64,000 bases of DNA. It comes from Candidatus Magasanikbacteria bacterium RIFOXYD1_FULL_40_23 (GTDB taxonomy: Bacteria; Patescibacteriota; Patescibacteriia; Magasanikbacterales; GWA2-37-8). Of this stretch, positions 5,182 through 57,968 are shown in pieces. The notes beneath the pieces were generated by a model, which saw only the letters and a list, made by a program, of their open reading frames with translations, was not told the DNA's origin and searched no databases. The position numbers were made by a program, and so were the translations under genes. How positions within the stretch are numbered: the stretch's first letter is position 1; each line of letters starts with the position of its first letter. The DNA lies in contig MFRA01000005.1 of assembly GCA_001783215.1 (NCBI GenBank), positions 29,845 through 93,844 on the forward strand. Reading direction: 5' to 3'.

Positions 5182-6471
5182 ATGCAATATACACTAAAAA
5201 ATCTAGAAAAATCCCAAGTAGAACTAACCATTACCGTAGAACCAAAGGATTACAAAAAACATTTAGAAGAGGCTGCTGTTCGCATTTCCGAACGCGCCGC
5301 TATTGCTGGCTTTCGCCCAGGCAAAGCCCCTTATGAAACCGTAAAACAACAGGTGGGTGAAATCCGAATCATAGAAGAAGCAATGCAAAGCATAGTAGAA
5401 AGAAATTTCTTTTTGGCTGCCAAAGAAGCTGCTTTAGATACTGTTGGCATGCCCCAAATTACTATTACCAAAATTGCTCCAGGCAATGATTTGGCCTTTA
5501 CTGCTACTGTAGCCCTGCTCCCAAAAATTAAATTGGGTGATTTGGCAACTGTAAAAGTAAAACATCAAGCCAAAGAAATTACCGACGAAGAAGTAGATAA
5601 AACTTTGAACGATTTAAAAAAGATGCAAACCAGAGAAATTCTAAAATCTGGTCCAGCTACCAAAGAAGATAAAATGGTAATTAACCTAGAAATGTTCTTG
5701 GACAAAGTACCAGTAGAAGGCGGACAAGCTCCAAACCACCAAGTATACTTGGGCGAACCTCACTATATTCCAGGACTAGCAGAACAATTAATTGGCTTAC
5801 AAAAAGATGAAACCAAAGAATTTACTCTCAAATTTCCAAAGGATCACTACCAAAAACATTTGGCTGGCAAAGATATTGAATTCAAAACAAAAGTACACGA
5901 TGTGTTTGAATTACAATATCCAGAAATAAATGAAGAATTTGCCAAATCTTTGGGCCAAGAAAGTATAGAAAAATTAAAAAATATTATAAAAGAAAACATG
6001 GCGGCTGAGCAGAAACACAAAGATGAACAAAAAATAGAAATAGAAATCTTGGATCAAATGATAGAAGCTAGTGAAATCTCCGAAATTCCAGACGTTCTAA
6101 TCAATACCGAAAAAAATAAAATCTTCCAAGAACTTCGCCGAAGTCTAGAAGCTCAAGGCATAGAGATGGAAAAATACTTAAAAGACTTAAAGAAAAGTGA
6201 AGAAGATATTTACAAGGACTTTACCGAACAAGCGATGCGCAGAGTAAAGGCCGCTCTTATCTCTCGCCAGATTGCGCTAGACAACAATATCAAAGCCGAG
6301 AAGTCCGAAATTGATGATGAAATAAAACAAATCAAAGCCGCATACCCAGATAATAAAAATGTAGAAGAAAATCTAAAAAAACCAGAAGTAATTGATACTC
6401 TAGCTCTAACAATTCAAAACAGAAAAGTAATGAGTTGGCTAAAGGAAAAAATTACAGATAAAAAATCCTAA
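5182..6471 (+). CDS. tig: trigger factor (ribosome-associated chaperone with PPIase domain)
   Basis: 429 aa. N-terminus MQYTLKNLEKSQVELTITVEPKDYKK...FRPGKAPYETVKQ is typical of trigger factor. Confidence 0.9.
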   Translation: MQYTLKNLEKSQVELTITVEPKDYKKHLEEAAVRISERAAIAGFRPGKAPYETVKQQVGEIRIIEEAMQSIVERNFFLAAKEAALDTVGMPQITITKIAPGNDLAFTATVALLPKIKLGDLATVKVKHQAKEITDEEVDKTLNDLKKMQTREILKSGPATKEDKMVINLEMFLDKVPVEGGQAPNHQVYLGEPHYIPGLAEQLIGLQKDETKEFTLKFPKDHYQKHLAGKDIEFKTKVHDVFELQYPEINEEFAKSLGQESIEKLKNIIKENMAAEQKHKDEQKIEIEILDQMIEASEISEIPDVLINTEKNKIFQELRRSLEAQGIEMEKYLKDLKKSEEDIYKDFTEQAMRRVKAALISRQIALDNNIKAEKSEIDDEIKQIKAAYPDNKNVEENLKKPEVIDTLALTIQNRKVMSWLKEKITDKKS

Positions 6472-6487
6472 ATCTCATATTCTCTAA

Positions 6488-6528
6488 AATAAAACAGTCC
6501 TGCAACAAGGATTGTTTTATTTTTTAAG
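6488..6528 (+). terminator. rho-independent terminator after tig
   Basis: ACAGTCCTGCAACAAGGATTGT hairpin followed by TTTATTTTTT. Confidence 0.5.
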
Positions 6529-6606
6529 CAATCAGTATTTTAAAAAGCGCCCTGCCAGAGAAAATCTCCGACAGAGCGCGCACCCTCCCCCTTACTACAG
6601 ACGAGC

Positions 6607-6834
6607 TCAGTCGTCTTGGCTCAGTCGCATCTCTCGGTCCCCCAACCGATCGGTGTCGAACAAGAACCCATCCTCGAGCCACGGCGACAACGGCAACGCC
6701 CGAAGCTGAACATCCACCTTGGCCTCCAAGGCAGCTTCGGGGTCAACTTTCGCACAGTCATCACAGACGGCAACGTCCTCGTCGTCGGTCTCGATCTCCC
6801 TCTCACAAAGAACACATTCGACAGTCTTCGGCAT
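6607..6834 (-). CDS. small acidic zinc-ribbon protein (CxxC-x13-CxxC) in a GC-rich islet
   Basis: MPKTVECVLCEREIETDDEDVAVCDDCAK. GGGGGA precedes the ATG. Local GC is well above the flanks. Confidence 0.45.
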   Translation of the reverse strand: MPKTVECVLCEREIETDDEDVAVCDDCAKVDPEAALEAKVDVQLRALPLSPWLEDGFLFDTDRLGDREMRLSQDD

Positions 6835-6922
6835 CCGGAATCCCCCATGTTGTTATCTGCGAATTTGCAGATAGTAGATTATACACTCCAAAACGGCTTT
6901 TTGTCAATCGTATGATATAATT

Positions 6923-6951
6923 TTGACTATAGGATTTTTAAATACTATAAT
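6923..6951 (+). promoter_or_regulatory. near-consensus sigma70 promoter for nfo (TTGACT / 17 nt / TATAAT)
   Basis: TTGACT at 6923-6928, 17-nt spacer, TATAAT at 6946-6951. Confidence 0.55.
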
Positions 6952-6971
6952 GACACTACTAAATAAACTAT

Positions 6972-7808
6972 ATGCTTTTTGGCGCACATGTATCCATTGC
7001 TGGCGGATTATTCAACGCCCCTATAAACGCGGCTGCTATTGGCTGTGAAGTATTCCAAATGTTTTCTCGTTCCCCTCGCGGTGGTTGGGTAGCTCCACTA
7101 GACAAAAACATTGCCAAACAATTTAAAGAAAACTGCGAAAAGCATAACCAAAAAGAATGGTATATTCATGCGCCGTATTTTATAAACTTTGCTTCTACCA
7201 ATCCACGCATCAAACATGGCTCTGTGGCTGTATTACGAGAAGAACTAGAGCGTGGCACAATGCTGGGCGCAAAATACATAATGACTCATTTGGGCAGCTA
7301 CAAAGATGTGGGCCAAAAAGAAGGTTATAAACAATTAATAGAGGGTTTAGAAAAAGTAATGAAGGGATATAAGGGCACAACCCAATTTCTAATAGAAATC
7401 TCTGCTGGTGCCGGTAATATCCTTGGGGACACATTTGAAGAGGTAGGCGCTGCCTTACATCACAAAAAAATAGAAAAATATAATATCGGTGTCTGCTACG
7501 ATACCCAACATGCATTTGCTAGCGGCTACGATTGCCGCACGCCCAAAGCATTTGATGAAACTCTAAAAAAATTTGATAAAGAAATTGGCCTGGATAGATT
7601 AAAAATGTTTCATTGCAATGATTCCAAACCAGAACTTGGATCTCACCGAGATCGTCACGAACATATCGGCAAGGGCCAAATAGGATTGGCTGGATTTAAA
7701 ACAATCTTAGGTGATAAAAGATTAAAAGATAAAAACTTTATAGCAGAAACCGAAGATGACGAAATCGTACAAGACTTAAAACTACTAAAAAAGATTAGGG
7801 ATAAATAA
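6972..7808 (+). CDS. nfo: endonuclease IV (AP endonuclease family 2)
   Basis: MLFGAHVSIAGGLFNAPINAAAIGCEVFQMFSRSPRGGW is the Nfo N-terminal signature. 278 aa. Confidence 0.88.
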   Translation: MLFGAHVSIAGGLFNAPINAAAIGCEVFQMFSRSPRGGWVAPLDKNIAKQFKENCEKHNQKEWYIHAPYFINFASTNPRIKHGSVAVLREELERGTMLGAKYIMTHLGSYKDVGQKEGYKQLIEGLEKVMKGYKGTTQFLIEISAGAGNILGDTFEEVGAALHHKKIEKYNIGVCYDTQHAFASGYDCRTPKAFDETLKKFDKEIGLDRLKMFHCNDSKPELGSHRDRHEHIGKGQIGLAGFKTILGDKRLKDKNFIAETEDDEIVQDLKLLKKIRDK

Positions 7809-8333: not shown

Positions 8334-8603
8334 TTAAGGGTTATCTATTCCACCCTTACTCCACGGATTACAGCGCAATATTCGCCAGGCCGCTAGTGCA
8401 ACACCCACCACTAAACCTCGTTTTCTTATTATTTCATATCCATACTCACTACAGGTGGGCGTAAACCTGCAATAGCCATAGGGGAATTGAGATTTAAACA
8501 GCCCATGATCTGGAGAAATTGTTTTTTGGTATATTTTTATCAAAAATAAGAGCGGCGTTCTTGGCAAGAATAAGAGAAAATCAAGGATTTTTTTTATTTT
8601 CAT
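8334..8603 (-). CDS. yidD: membrane protein insertion efficiency factor YidD
   Basis: [39 protein letters not shown]...[14 protein letters not shown]. The start may be 6 codons upstream at 8621. Confidence 0.8.
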
Positions 8604-8690
8604 ACAAAGTGAAGGAAACAAAAATTTATTTTTATTTCTGAGCGTGTATAGAAAATACCTTTAGTATTTTCATATTAAGCAAACTTTGGA

Positions 8691-8724
8691 TGTCATCCCG
8701 AGCGAGCCGTAGCGACGAGGGATC
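8691..8724. repeat. GTCATCC...GGATC palindromic repeat unit (family R, single unit) at the 3' end of rnpA
   Basis: TGTCATCCCGAGCGAGCCGTAGCGACGAGGGATC; ATCCC/GGGAT stem. Confidence 0.6.
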
Positions 8725-8742
8725 TACAATATAAAATAAATG

Positions 8743-9138: not shown

Positions 9139-9274
9139 ATTATAAAATAGTATAACAAATTACCGTTGATTTGTCTTTGACAACACATCGCAGTCACGAC
9201 TCGCGTCGGGACGAGATCTGAATGCCCGAGTCATCCACAGATGGCGAGAGGCTGTTTGGCAAAGATAAATTAAT

Positions 9275-9325
9275 GGTAATTAAACATAAAACCCGCCTTT
9301 GAAGGGGGTTTTATGTTTAATTACC
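9275..9325 (-). terminator. 20-bp perfect inverted repeat hairpin between rpmH and rnpA (terminator or attenuator)
   Basis: GGTAATTAAACATAAAACCC ...GCCTTTGAAGGG... GGGTTTTATGTTTAATTACC. The minus-strand reading is followed by a U-rich stretch. Confidence 0.55.
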
Positions 9326-9499
9326 AGGTTTTTCTTGTTCTCTTGCCTTTGCGTTCGTTGGAAACTGTTAGTTTCTTTCTGCCTTTTGCACGTCTGCGGC
9401 TAAGAACTGCGCGTCCTCCCTTGGTTTTCATACGAGCACGGAAACCGTGGGATTTTGCTCTCTTGCGTTTTTTAGGTTGATAAGTTCGCTTTGTTGCCA
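9323..9499 (-). CDS. rpmH: 50S ribosomal protein L34 (below the 60-aa cutoff, so absent from the ORF track)
   Basis: Manual translation gives [59 protein letters not shown], with the L34 motif HGFRARM..GGR.VL..RR.KGR..L. Confidence 0.85.
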
Positions 9500-9697: not shown

Positions 9698-11098
9698 ATG
9701 TCCAACCACGAAATATGGCAAGCTGTTTTGGCAGAATTGGAACTTACCATCTCTAAACCAAACTTTGTTACCTGGTTTAAGAATACAGATATCCTATCCT
9801 ACCAAGACAATTGCGCTGTATTGTGCGTACCCAATGACTTCAACCGTGCCTGGCTAGAGAAAAAATACCACCACATGATTGTAACTTCTCTAGAGAGAGT
9901 AACCGAAAAACCAATCAAACGACTAGAATACAAGATATATAATATAAAAAACATTGTTCCAGAAAGCGCTGTTGTAGAAACCAAAACAGAAAATGTTTCC
10001 CAAGAAACACCTGTGCTTTCTCCTGTTTTTACTTCTTCCGAAGTGTCTGCCCCTCCAAGAGTGGGTGAGTTTGGCTTAAATCCAAAATATGTTTTTGAAA
10101 CTTTCGTAGTTGGCGGTGGATCCGAACTTGCTTATGCAGCCGCTCAAGCCGTAGTAAACAAACCAGGCGAAGCCTACAACCCACTATTTATCTACGGTGG
10201 CGTAGGTTTAGGCAAAACCCACTTGGTACAAGCTATCGGCAACCATCTACTCAAAGCCAGACCAAATATAAATATCATGTATGCCAGCGCCGAAAAGTTC
10301 TCTAACGACTATATCTCTTCTGTTCGAGACGGCAATGCCAAAAACTTTCAAAACAGATACCGCAATATAGACGTACTTCTTATAGACGATATTCAATTTA
10401 TCTCTGGCAAAGACAAAACCCAAGAATCTTTCTTCCACACCTTCAACGAATTACACCAACAAAACAAACAAGTAGTAATGACTTCTGACCGACCACCAAA
10501 AGCTATTCCTGCCCTAGAAGACCGCCTAAAATCCCGTTTTGAATGGGGTATGATTGTAGATGTGGCTCCACCAGAACTAGAAACTAGAATAGCTATTCTG
10601 CAGAAAAAAAGCGTAGAAAAGAACTTTCATCTTAACCAAGACATTTTGCAATTGGTGGCCACCACTATCCACCGCAACATCCGCGAACTAGAGGGCGCAC
10701 TAAACAAAATTATCGCGGTTCACCAGCTAAAAAACATGGAACCTACTATGGAATCGGTAAAGGCACTACTAGCCAACACCGAAATGCGTTCGGCATACAA
10801 ATCTATTACCCCTCAACAGATTATAGACGCGGCCAGTGAATTCTTTACAATCAATACTTCCGATCTACTTGGCCAAAGCCGAGAAAAGAAATTCTCTCAC
10901 CCTCGCCAAATTATCATGCACCTAATGCGCAAAGAACTTAACATGTCTTATCCGGCTATTGGCAACGAGCTTGGCGGAAGAGATCATACAACCGCTATGC
11001 ATGCCGACAACAAAATAAGCACAGAGATAGAACAAGACCTAAAACTAAAACAAGAAGTAGAGCTAATAAAACAAAAGCTTTATATAAACATTACCTAG
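9698..11098 (+). CDS. dnaA: chromosomal replication initiator DnaA
   Basis: 466 aa. AAA+ Walker A GGVGLGKTHL, DnaA domain IV, and the MSNHEIWQAVLAELELTIS N-terminus. Confidence 0.93.
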   Translation: MSNHEIWQAVLAELELTISKPNFVTWFKNTDILSYQDNCAVLCVPNDFNRAWLEKKYHHMIVTSLERVTEKPIKRLEYKIYNIKNIVPESAVVETKTENVSQETPVLSPVFTSSEVSAPPRVGEFGLNPKYVFETFVVGGGSELAYAAAQAVVNKPGEAYNPLFIYGGVGLGKTHLVQAIGNHLLKARPNINIMYASAEKFSNDYISSVRDGNAKNFQNRYRNIDVLLIDDIQFISGKDKTQESFFHTFNELHQQNKQVVMTSDRPPKAIPALEDRLKSRFEWGMIVDVAPPELETRIAILQKKSVEKNFHLNQDILQLVATTIHRNIRELEGALNKIIAVHQLKNMEPTMESVKALLANTEMRSAYKSITPQQIIDAASEFFTINTSDLLGQSREKKFSHPRQIIMHLMRKELNMSYPAIGNELGGRDHTTAMHADNKISTEIEQDLKLKQEVELIKQKLYINIT

Positions 11099-11218
11099 TT
11101 GTCATTCCGACCGAGCCTTTAGGCGAGTGGAGGAATCCCTTAAACTTAGTATTTGCAACTACCAGGTATAAGGGATCCCTCGACGGAGTTTATGCCCCGA
11201 GGGGTGCTCAGGATGACA
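11099..11218. repeat. inverted pair of GTCATYC...GGATC repeat units (family R) immediately after the dnaA stop
   Basis: GTCATTCCGACCGAGCCTTTAGGCGAGTGGAGGAATCCCT ... AGGGATCCCTCGACGGAGTTTATGCCCCGAGGGGTGCTCAGGATGACA. Confidence 0.6.
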
Positions 11219-11225
11219 AATCCAC

Positions 11226-11517
11226 AGTTAATAATCAGTGGATAACCGATGTATAACTACCAAATATTTGCACCACTTATACACACTACTTACAACTTAT
11301 TCACAACCAATTACAAAATAATATTTTATCCCCACACCTTATTAGTCAAACACCAACAACTTACCCACAACACAAAAATCTAAAAACCCGTTTGGATAAA
11401 CAAGAATTCTGACTTATACACTTTATCCACTGCTATATAGTAACGATTGGAATTTATATATAAATATATAACGATATAATAATAGACAACTAAAAGTTTA
11501 CCCACTAGTTAAATTTT
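11226..11517. other. candidate oriC: DnaA-box cluster plus AT-rich unwinding region between dnaA and dnaN
   Basis: TTATCCCCA, GTTTATCCA (rc), TTATACACA x2, TTATCCACT and TTACCCACA x2, followed by ATTTATATATAAATATATAACGATATAATAATA. Confidence 0.6.
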
Positions 11518-28985: not shown

Positions 28986-29021
28986 TGTCATCCCGAGCGA
29001 GGCTTTTACCGACGAGGGATC
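28986..29021. repeat. GTCATCC...GGATC repeat unit (family R) between the LTD gene and tRNA-Ser
   Basis: TGTCATCCCGAGCGAGGCTTTTACCGACGAGGGATC. Confidence 0.6.
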
Positions 29022-29039
29022 TGCGTTTACAATAAAATT

Positions 29040-29127: not shown

Positions 29128-29300
29128 AATGTAGAGGGATGAGAAGTTTATTTTCAAGTTGAGCGAGAGGAAAGAAAATTTATCTTCTTTCCCGAGCGAA
29201 TGAAGAAAATACCTTAGTATTCCCCATAGCGGGGCGACGGGGCAAATTCCACCCCTTTTCTCTAGCGGTGTTAATAGCAAAAAGCTAACCCGATAACTTT

Positions 29301-45768: not shown

Positions 45769-45840
45769 TGTCATCCTGAACGGAGTGAAGGATCCCTTAC
45801 ACCCAAATGAGAGGGATTCTTCGCTTTGCTCAGAATGACA
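45769..45840. repeat. inverted pair of GTCATYCTGA...GGATC units (family R) between copA and the HMA-DsbD_2 gene
   Basis: TGTCATCCTGAACGGAGTGAAGGATCCCT ... GAGGGATTCTTCGCTTTGCTCAGAATGACA. Confidence 0.6.
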
Positions 45841-45907
45841 GTTAAAGTTAATTTTTAAATCGATTTATCTACTACATAGTGTAGTAGCAATAATTATGTT
45901 TGTCAAC

Positions 45908-57895: not shown

Positions 57896-57968
57896 TGTCA
57901 TTCTGAGTAAAGCGAAGAATCCCTCTTGTCCGAACGAAAGGGATCCTTCACTCCGTTCAGGATGACAG
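57896..57968. repeat. inverted pair of GTCATTCTGA...GGATC units (family R) after trhO, overlapping the 5' end of the next ORF
   Basis: TGTCATTCTGAGTAAAGCGAAGAATCCCTC ttgtccgaacgaa AGGGATCCTTCACTCCGTTCAGGATGACA. Same two arm sequences as at 45769-45840 but in swapped order. Confidence 0.6.

Follow-up and report, generated by a model that had tools for sequence, protein, structure and literature searches.

TGTC-tagged hairpin repeats in a Magasanikbacteria genome and their probable kinship with the repeats of Ssn-type GIY-YIG nucleases

Eight repeat units at five intergenic loci

The DNA analyzed here is a single 64-kb stretch (the window) of the aquifer metagenome genome of Candidatus Magasanikbacteria RIFOXYD1_FULL_40_23, a member of the CPR/Patescibacteria, to whose DnaA and DnaN the proteins encoded here are identical. 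Its initial annotation had drawn attention to a dispersed family of short palindromic units, occurring singly or as inverted pairs. In a search of the window, the motif GTCATYCYGA occurs eight times against 0.24 expected, and the full unit pattern TGTCATYCYGA-N(6-36)-GRRGRATCY also has eight matches against 0.00 expected; their coordinates agree with those annotated before to within 1 nt (Table 1). These matches make up two single units and three inverted pairs at five loci, each of which is a short spacer flanked by co-directional genes, and none of the units lies within a mobile element.

Table 1 Repeat units in the 64-kb window, with their composition and neighboring genes.
Feature	Position	Strand	Detection	Composition and setting
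Single unit, 35 nt	8691..8725	+	Pattern match; covariance model, 30.9 bits, E 8e-5	TGTC tag, stem ATCCC/GGGAT, GA..GA, 15-nt inner insert, tail CT; between rnpA stop (8743, minus strand) and yidD start (8621, minus strand)
Left unit, dnaA doublet	11100..11138	+	Pattern match; covariance model, 15.8 bits	TGTC tag, stem ATTCC/GGAAT, inner hairpin GCC-TTTA-GGC; immediately after dnaA stop codon (11096-11098); doublet in dnaA-dnaN spacer
Right inverted unit, dnaA doublet, 46 nt, tag outward	11173..11218	-	Pattern match	Missed by the covariance model because of its long inner insert
Single unit	28986..29022	+	Pattern match; covariance model, 31.2 bits, E 7e-5	52 nt past stop of an 847-aa PKD-domain gene; tRNA-Ser(TGA) (29040) 18 nt farther on
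Unit A, 27 nt, TGTCATCCTGAACGGAGTGAAGGATCC	45769..45795	+	Pattern match; covariance model, 43.1 bits	Doublet 45769-45840 between copA stop (45908, minus strand) and HMA/DsbD_2 start (45761, minus strand)
Unit B, 27 nt, TGTCATTCTGAGCAAAGCGAAGAATCC, inverted partner of A, tags outward	45814..45840	-	Pattern match; covariance model, 44.7 bits	
Unit B', one substitution relative to unit B	57896..57922	+	Pattern match; covariance model	Doublet 57896-57967 between trhO stop (57885) and riboflavin-kinase start (about 57984)
Unit A copy, identical to 45769-45795, inverted partner of B'	57941..57967	-	Pattern match; covariance model	

The doublets beside copA and trhO had been described as containing the same two arms in swapped order, and they are indeed one composite, consisting of A, an 18-nt spacer and inverted B, inserted in opposite orientations. 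The two 18-nt spacers are unrelated in sequence. The further statement that units always mark gene 3′ ends is only half of the picture: at all five loci they lie just past a stop codon, at distances of 10-68 nt, but they also lie 8-300 nt ahead of the next start codon or tRNA gene, and one unit is only 8 nt ahead of a start codon.

Two degenerate relatives had been listed at 9197-9250 and 29160-29215. Neither was recovered when a covariance model built for the family was run at E ≤ 10 without filtering, and positions 29169-29192 form a separate 11-nt inverted repeat. The same model reported a match at 2924-2951 on the minus strand, which is a chance match within a coding ORF with its stem unpaired and was also among the 150 training sequences. 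An ORF of 95 aa beside the unit at 8691 (8334-8621) was considered as a candidate nuclease gene and rejected, as it encodes YidD (PF01809). At the Rfam gathering threshold the window yields two tRNAs only, and permissive Rfam scans return only chance miRNA-like hairpin matches over the doublet. Searches of literature text for the unit sequence strings found only primers and unrelated matches.

Anatomy, distribution and turnover of the units

The units share a plan that comprises an unpaired TGTC tag, a Watson-Crick stem of 5 bp, two G·A/A·G pairs in a 5'-YGAR-3' context, a center and an unpaired C-Y-C tail. Tandem sheared G·A pairs stack well where 5'-YGAR-3' is juxtaposed with 5'-YGAR-3'. Inside the 5 bp, the G·A/A·G pairs are followed by 2 bp and then by a 3-nt GNA loop; the center takes the form of a d(GCGNAGC) mini-hairpin in some units and of a longer nested hairpin in others. 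GCGNAGC is a mini-hairpin DNA motif of extraordinary stability (PMC13037366). The commonest unit reads TGTCAT-YCY-GA-GCGNAGC-GA-RGR-ATCT; in longer units the loop holds nested hairpins, some of which repeat the same design (CCCTGA...GAAGGG).

Every unit in the window carries the tag TGTC, a stem that begins with AT and ends with AT, and GA...GA inside the stem, and tags, tails and stems are perfect in all eight. The centers are 7 nt long (ACGGAGT, GCAAAGC) or are replaced by an insert of 15-26 nt, and the tails are CCC or CT. Folding on a short stem had been proposed from the letters alone; this stem is present in the eight copies in the form ATYCY/RGRAT, realized as ATCCT/AGGAT, ATTCT/AGAAT, ATCCC/GGGAT and ATTCC/GGAAT, so that its inner three positions covary (CCT/AGG, TCT/AGA, CCC/GGG, TCC/GGA).

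Covariation was quantified in 150 distinct 28-nt sequences from many organisms, collected with the pattern GTCAT-NNN-GA-N7-GA-NNN-ATC, which leaves the stem and the core free. In this set, 97% of stem cells pair, and double-sided changes number 153 against 43 in shuffles, none of 500 shuffles scoring as high. Compensatory change is found at five of the five variable pairs, with additional stem variants such as GCT/AGC, TTC/GAA, GTT/AAC and CTC/GAG, and G·T wobbles in the outer stem occur at a rate of about 1 in 150 per pair. Invariance of the stem-initial AT in this alignment is not independent evidence, because the search pattern fixed it. Among units from viral contigs, the variable stem positions are perfectly complementary in 179 of 192.

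Where flanks were left unconstrained, the 5′ flank is TGTC in 87% of units and CGTC in 7%, and the stem is followed by C at +1 (98%), T at +2 (83%) and C at +3 (60%). The bases immediately before the palindrome are G (98%), T (97%) and C (97%), with C after it (98%), and all eight window units comply. In thermodynamic prediction, single units, folded as RNA or as DNA, do no better than shuffled sequence; two doublets fold as one long DNA hairpin, with z = -4.4 (45769-45840) and z = -2.95. Nearest-neighbor models score sheared G·A pairs and GNA loops poorly. Because single units fold no better than shuffles, the case for the hairpin rests on covariation.

The repeat had been taken as specific to this lineage, which the wider searches contradict. 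The unit pattern has at least 120 matches in IMG/VR contigs and at least 120 in GTDB contigs (one genome per species), the titles of the latter naming more than 15 phyla. Titles among the GTDB matches listed include Chloroflexota, Acidobacteriota, Nitrospirota, Bacteroidota, Ignavibacteria, Saccharibacteria, Gracilibacteria, Planctomycetota, Verrucomicrobiota, all Proteobacteria classes, Firmicutes, Cloacimonadota, Caldisericales, Gemmatimonadota, Nitrospinae and Binatia. The unit family occurs across most bacterial phyla.

The arrangement seen in the window recurs in this broad sample. Neighboring units within 100 nt of each other point their tags outward in 48 cases and inward in nine, and tags lie outside in all three window doublets. 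Spacers holding units are co-directional in 151 cases, convergent in 61 and divergent in 21, counts that depend on crude ORF calls; these calls are unreliable in high-GC contigs and placed 100 of the 389 units within an ORF. Convergent spacers thus exceed divergent ones, as a family enriched at gene 3′ ends had been expected to show. The assignment of the family to the REP/BIME-like class, made at the outset, also holds: the units are dispersed and palindromic, intergenic, and single or in inverted doublets. In phage contigs, units sit between structural genes. When the 492 ORFs within 300 nt of units were clustered, portal, adaptor, capsid and terminase proteins from related phage contigs formed the largest clusters, and the sole recurrent non-phage family was GIY-YIG.

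Comparison with close relatives, chosen as having DnaA or TrhO in the same 90% cluster as the window's, was made at orthologous sites. One relative (L325) has no 120-nt doublet after dnaA, although the remainder of the DnaA-box-rich spacer is conserved; its yidD-rnpA spacer, which contains one unit in the window, carries a different doublet, made of a CGTC-tagged B-like unit and an A-like unit. In L327 the copA doublet is missing and the neighboring palindrome is conserved, and in L327, L328 and L329 trhO is separated from the kinase gene by 1-12 nt, without a doublet. Conversely, L328 has an A-like unit upstream of its malic-enzyme gene and the window has none at that site. Overall, the relatives carry one unit in about 57 kb, compared with eight in the 64-kb window. 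All three doublets are missing at the relatives' matching sites, which implies recent gain or loss, and from these alignments the window repeats look like recently mobile or rapidly turning-over DNA. The three filled/empty comparisons defined neither a target-site duplication nor a motif at the insertion sites.

Small GIY-YIG genes beside the units

The unit-adjacent cluster consists of single-domain GIY-YIG proteins of 93-123 aa (PF01541) from Saccharibacteria (L133), Chitinophagales (L132), Acidobacteria (L164), Gracilibacteria (L195) and Bacteroidetes (L201). A single unit precedes the start codon of the Saccharibacteria gene by 5 nt, and three others follow just past its stop; the Gracilibacteria protein ends in ...RDSSLRSE, which is a translated inverted unit. 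An alignment of these proteins was used to find 80 metagenomic loci encoding relatives; as the loci are the best matches to one protein, the statistics describe that clade rather than all Ssn genes. A strict unit lies within 250 nt of the GIY-YIG gene at 60 of the 80 loci, a relaxed unit at 71, and units are present on both sides of the gene at 51. Per kb, 3.4 units occur near the gene and 0.35 farther off. The usual spacing places the end of a unit about 28 nt before the start codon and the beginning of another about 10 nt past the stop.

The Saccharibacteria protein is 46% identical (E 4e-16) to the product of a Neisseria gonorrhoeae gene that is itself immediately flanked by canonical NTS repeats, CGTCATTCCCGC...GCGGGAATC. 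At 93 aa it is also close in length to SsnA (94 aa). Invariant Y17 and E64 of our alignment are two of the catalytic positions Y6/Y17/E64 of Nm SsnA, and invariant Y7 is one position off Y6. GIY-YIG homologs are at least 70% identical across phyla, which suggests horizontal spread. NCBIfam has no model specific to the unit-adjacent proteins, and the PDB search returned UPF0213 GIY-YIG structures only. Neither the 64-kb window nor about 70 kb of DNA from five relatives contains a GIY-YIG/Ssn-like ORF, and the Magasanikbacteria label is absent among the best 120 GIY-YIG homologs listed.

One of the closest known systems is that of SsnA in Neisseria, a 94-aa GIY-YIG nuclease that binds NTS (CGTCATTCCCGCGMAVGCGGGAATCYRG; also NTS/dRS3), one of the Ssn-related motifs (SRM), as ssDNA (Chenal 2025, PMC11893778). 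SsnA cuts a few nucleotides upstream of NTS and is inactive on dsDNA, on RNA and on the opposite strand; cutting depends most on the three bases before the palindrome and binding on the C after it (PMC11893778). These positions are conserved in our units as well. Single-domain ssn genes of the cd10448 type are typically repeat-flanked (PMC11893778), and Ssn enzymes differ in specificity. Our units resemble this SRM/NTS-SsnA system in being directional hairpins with an HGTC tag before an AT-starting palindrome and a conserved C after it, in having tens to hundreds of intergenic copies, and in the placement of repeats on both sides of a single-domain GIY-YIG gene of about 94 aa, a placement seen here in other organisms, where the gene products are homologous to the gonococcal protein. 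They differ in structure: NTS has a GC-rich stem of 8 bp, whereas in the units only 5 Watson-Crick bp are formed before the tandem G·A pairs, and the interior is a GCGNAGC mini-hairpin or is filled by nested inserts. The tag is also TGTC rather than CGTC, the host is a CPR bacterium, and SsnA-type cleavage of the units is a prediction by analogy. The published SRM search sequence, HGTCWYN(0-2)YYVSBRHN(0-5)WNVSBRGN(0-2)RNCYNB, matches none of the 389 units, none of the eight window units and nothing elsewhere in the window; because none of the 389 matches this regular expression, the subtype lies outside the published motif definition.

The units also resemble the CGTC-tagged REPs, which have an unpaired CGTC tag (changed to TGTC in many, with CCTC as a further form), a 3-nt tail and stems starting with complementary A and T, have no dedicated transposase and, in families CGTC-1 to CGTC-4, give rise to peptide footprints that include VIPAKAGI, VIPWLDHGI and VIAGLDPAI (PMC3733652). 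Common to both are the unpaired TGTC/CGTC tag, the stem-initial A/T and a short unpaired tail, though of different sequence; dimers whose tags are mostly outside, with frequent heterodimers and variable spacers; and a location between unidirectional or convergent ORFs with no flanking transposase. However, CGTC-1 to CGTC-4 have stems of 8-9 bp and loops of 4-5 nt, whereas our units combine a 5-bp stem and G·A pairs with either a GNA triloop or long inserts; the footprint of our units is VILSEAKDL and their tail is CYC instead of CCA. The subtype fits none of these four families as described, and its distribution is far wider than the five phyla from which CGTC-tagged REPs were reported (PMC3733652). 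With the REP/BIME and REPIN-RAYT systems of Enterobacteria and Pseudomonas, the units have in common the build of a short imperfect palindrome that carries a conserved tetranucleotide on its 5′ side, the joining of two unit types across a short spacer into an inverted doublet, and a single-copy gene for an ssDNA-processing enzyme that is itself repeat-flanked. Those systems have a GTAG tag and an HUH Y1 transposase (RAYT), where ours have TGTC and GIY-YIG.

A probable ssDNA hairpin repeat and its predicted nuclease

Several explanations can be weighed against this background. The initial annotation had offered a terminator or transcript stabilizer as one function, namely RNA-level 3′ hairpins that, like those suggested for the REPs of E. 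coli, would end transcription or shield mRNA from 3′ exonucleases. The placement of all five window loci just downstream of a stop codon would suit such a role, as would the ability of doublets to form long hairpins and, in the broad sample, the excess of convergent over divergent spacers and of units nearer the upstream stop (87) than the downstream start (56) in co-directional spacers. Yet the unit, directional from tag to tail, is found about as often on one strand as on the other with respect to its co-directional neighbors (75 vs 69; 47 vs 39 for isolated units), and a motif that has a direction but is indifferent to that of transcription speaks against a strand-specific role as RNA. Hairpins at the window loci lack a following T-run that would give a U-tract, outer-stem G·U is nearly absent, no Rfam family matches, and two window units lie close ahead of the next gene, one 8 nt from a start codon and the other 18 nt from a tRNA gene; SsnA, for its part, does not bind RNA (PMC11893778). 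The absence of orientation bias, the strictly Watson-Crick outer stem and the stable DNA mini-hairpin core together point to action of the units at the level of DNA, and we consider an RNA-level role quite improbable. At the DNA level, the units could be duplex binding sites of a general chromosomal protein such as gyrase, an IHF-like protein or a nucleoid protein, in the manner of E. coli BIMEs. Dispersed intergenic palindromes serve in this way in E. coli (background cited in PMC3733652), and one of our doublets abuts the DnaA-box region. Pairing is kept while the sequence changes, however, which points to an intrastrand hairpin and not to a fixed duplex recognition sequence; copies are dispensable, being missing at orthologous sites in relatives; and an asymmetric tag and tail would be unexpected for a dimeric dsDNA binder. 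This reading is scarcely plausible.

Mobilization as REP/REPIN elements by RAYT or another HUH tyrosine transposase of the IS200/IS605 type would account for a hairpin with a conserved 5′ tetranucleotide, for inverted doublets and for intergenic dispersal (PMC3116915, PMC6006769), but the unit tag is TGTC and not GT[AG]G, the 492 ORFs near units include no Y1 transposase cluster, and no tyrosine transposase gene is flanked by CGTC-type units (Di Nocera 2013, PMC3733652), so that we judge it highly improbable. The units in the Magasanikbacteria genome might instead be inert, near-neutral relics or hitch-hikers, brought by recombination or horizontal transfer into a genome with no resident nuclease. 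An ssn gene was not found in the window or in the relatives' loci, few units are present in relatives, phages with units between their structural genes could act as vectors, and CGTC repeats without a dedicated transposase have been described as maybe heading to extinction (Di Nocera 2013, PMC3733652). Against this stand the intactness of the copies, with two unit A copies identical, and several recent insertions in one strain, which look like recent activity rather than decay; moreover, the gene was sought in only about 6% or less of a genome of about 1 Mb. Inertness is unlikely on this evidence.

We conclude that the units are probably ssDNA hairpin repeats of the CGTC/TGTC-tagged REP superfamily, of a subtype that accompanies a widespread clade of small single-domain GIY-YIG proteins homologous to SsnA. 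They are best explained as putative cognate ssDNA hairpin sites of an Ssn-type nuclease, and protein binding would be the best supported of the functions suggested at the outset. On the model of SsnA and NTS (PMC11893778), the hairpin would form when the tag-bearing strand turns single-stranded, as might happen on the lagging-strand template, in incoming transforming DNA or during repair. An Ssn-type nuclease would bind the hairpin, reading GTC before and C after it, and would nick the ssDNA a few nucleotides upstream of the unit. Recombination or transformation may be modulated as a result, and the repeats themselves would probably spread.

A further possibility, which we advance tentatively, is that TGTC doublets are non-autonomous elements copied in trans by the Ssn-clade GIY-YIG nuclease as a counterpart of REPIN-RAYT, horizontally spread with the gene, and that the empty and filled sites reflect fresh transposition or homing. 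If so, element and gene would have spread through most bacterial phyla, CPR bacteria and tailed phages. To our knowledge, GIY-YIG enzymes make no covalent DNA intermediate, and for this reason a mechanism of transposition is not obvious.

Repeats of this kind were known from work published in 2013 and 2025, and our additions are modest, namely a subtype, a very wide range, presence in CPR bacteria and phages, and strain-level polymorphism. For annotation, the units explain very common spurious small ORFs and odd protein termini, such as that of the Gracilibacteria protein noted above. The discovery of Ssn in 2025 supplied a partner enzyme for the long-puzzling CGTC-tagged repeats, and the published motif covers GC-rich-stem variants only; the differently built hairpin described here, in which a 5-bp stem and G·A pairs enclose a GNA mini-hairpin, is probably among the most widespread of Ssn-associated repeats. 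A new ssDNA cleavage specificity is predicted, with possible use as a tool. As the subtype is found in CPR bacteria and phages and varies in presence between close strains, it offers a natural system for studying the movement of such repeats and the role of the nuclease outside Neisseria.

Putative replication origin and neighboring repeats

We probably located oriC in the dnaA–dnaN spacer, where DnaA-box-like 9-mers (TTATCCACT, TTATCCCCACA and TTATACACA) are abundant; the spacer is kept in a close relative (L325), and cumulative GC skew reaches its minimum at ~12 kb in the window. A unit doublet (an inverted pair of the hairpin repeats) lies at the edge of this putative origin, immediately 3′ of the dnaA stop codon. 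The rpmH–rnpA region contains two further features, a long inverted repeat and a GC-rich patch. The inverted repeat shows no relationship to the units, and its only Rfam matches are weak and at chance level. The patch is similar to the start (ACGACTCGCCGGGTGACGAGTCG) of a larger insert in a second relative (L326) and may represent a second small foreign element; the covariance model of the units, run over the window, did not identify the patch as a family member.

Features in the window and in related sequences
Sequence	Positions	Feature	Details
Window	9195–9255	60-nt GC-rich patch between rnpA and rpmH	CACGACTCGCGTCGGGACGAG...
Window	9274–9326	Perfect 21-bp inverted repeat at rpmH 3′ end, between rpmH and rnpA	Arms TGGTAATTAAACATAAAACCC / GGGTTTTATGTTTAATTACCA, 11-nt loop
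Window	11219–11517	dnaA–dnaN spacer	
Window	45869–45887	Palindrome 3′ of copA, conserved in relative L327	CTACTACATAGTGTAGTAG
L326	2560–2975	GC-rich insert of ~500 nt in dnaA–dnaN spacer	134-aa ORF
L173 (Dehalococcoidia chromosome OZ244885.1)	6246–7142	Seven units within 900 bp	
L195 (Gracilibacteria)	6272–6601	Ssn-like protein	Annotated C-terminus ...RDSSLRSE, a translated inverted unit
L331 (Planktothrix agardhii plasmid NZ_LR882964.1)	480–1020	Ssn-like gene	68% identity to Saccharibacteria locus L133

The copA doublet is inserted ~30 nt from the palindrome, which may itself be a metal-repressor operator, because relatives encode a CsoR-type repressor (PF02583) within the copA operon.

Arrays, nested units and peptide footprints

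The Dehalococcoidia units form a BIME-like cluster, a tandem array whose period is ~330 nt and in which orientations alternate. Some units in four other sequences (L014, L086, L098 and L120) are recursive, as in TGTCATCCTGA-CCCTGA-ACGAAGT-GAAGGG-GAAGGATCT. Because their loops hold a second stem-GA...GA-stem module, we suggest that they grew as the same motif was duplicated or inserted in nested fashion. Units are also a likely source of spurious small ORFs and of the very common peptide ends of the 'RDSSLRSE / VILSEAKDL' type in metagenomic protein sets.

Units on a plasmid and in phage contigs

The plasmid-borne Ssn-like gene (a small GIY-YIG gene) of Planktothrix is flanked by an MmeI-type restriction-modification gene on one side and DISARM drmA on the other. 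Downstream of it, the 5′ half of a unit (CTGTCATTCTGAGTTCTCCTGTG) is tandemly repeated twice and followed by a complete unit, an arrangement that may be the footprint of cleavage and repair.

Several related phage contigs from IMG/VR (L098, L120, L069, L014 and L060) carry three to seven units each, positioned between structural genes (SPP1-type portal, SU10 adaptor, capsid and terminase), and the retrieved stretches of these contigs contain no ssn gene. Phages may be carriers of units from host to host; alternatively, the units may be sites at which host Ssn acts on phage DNA.
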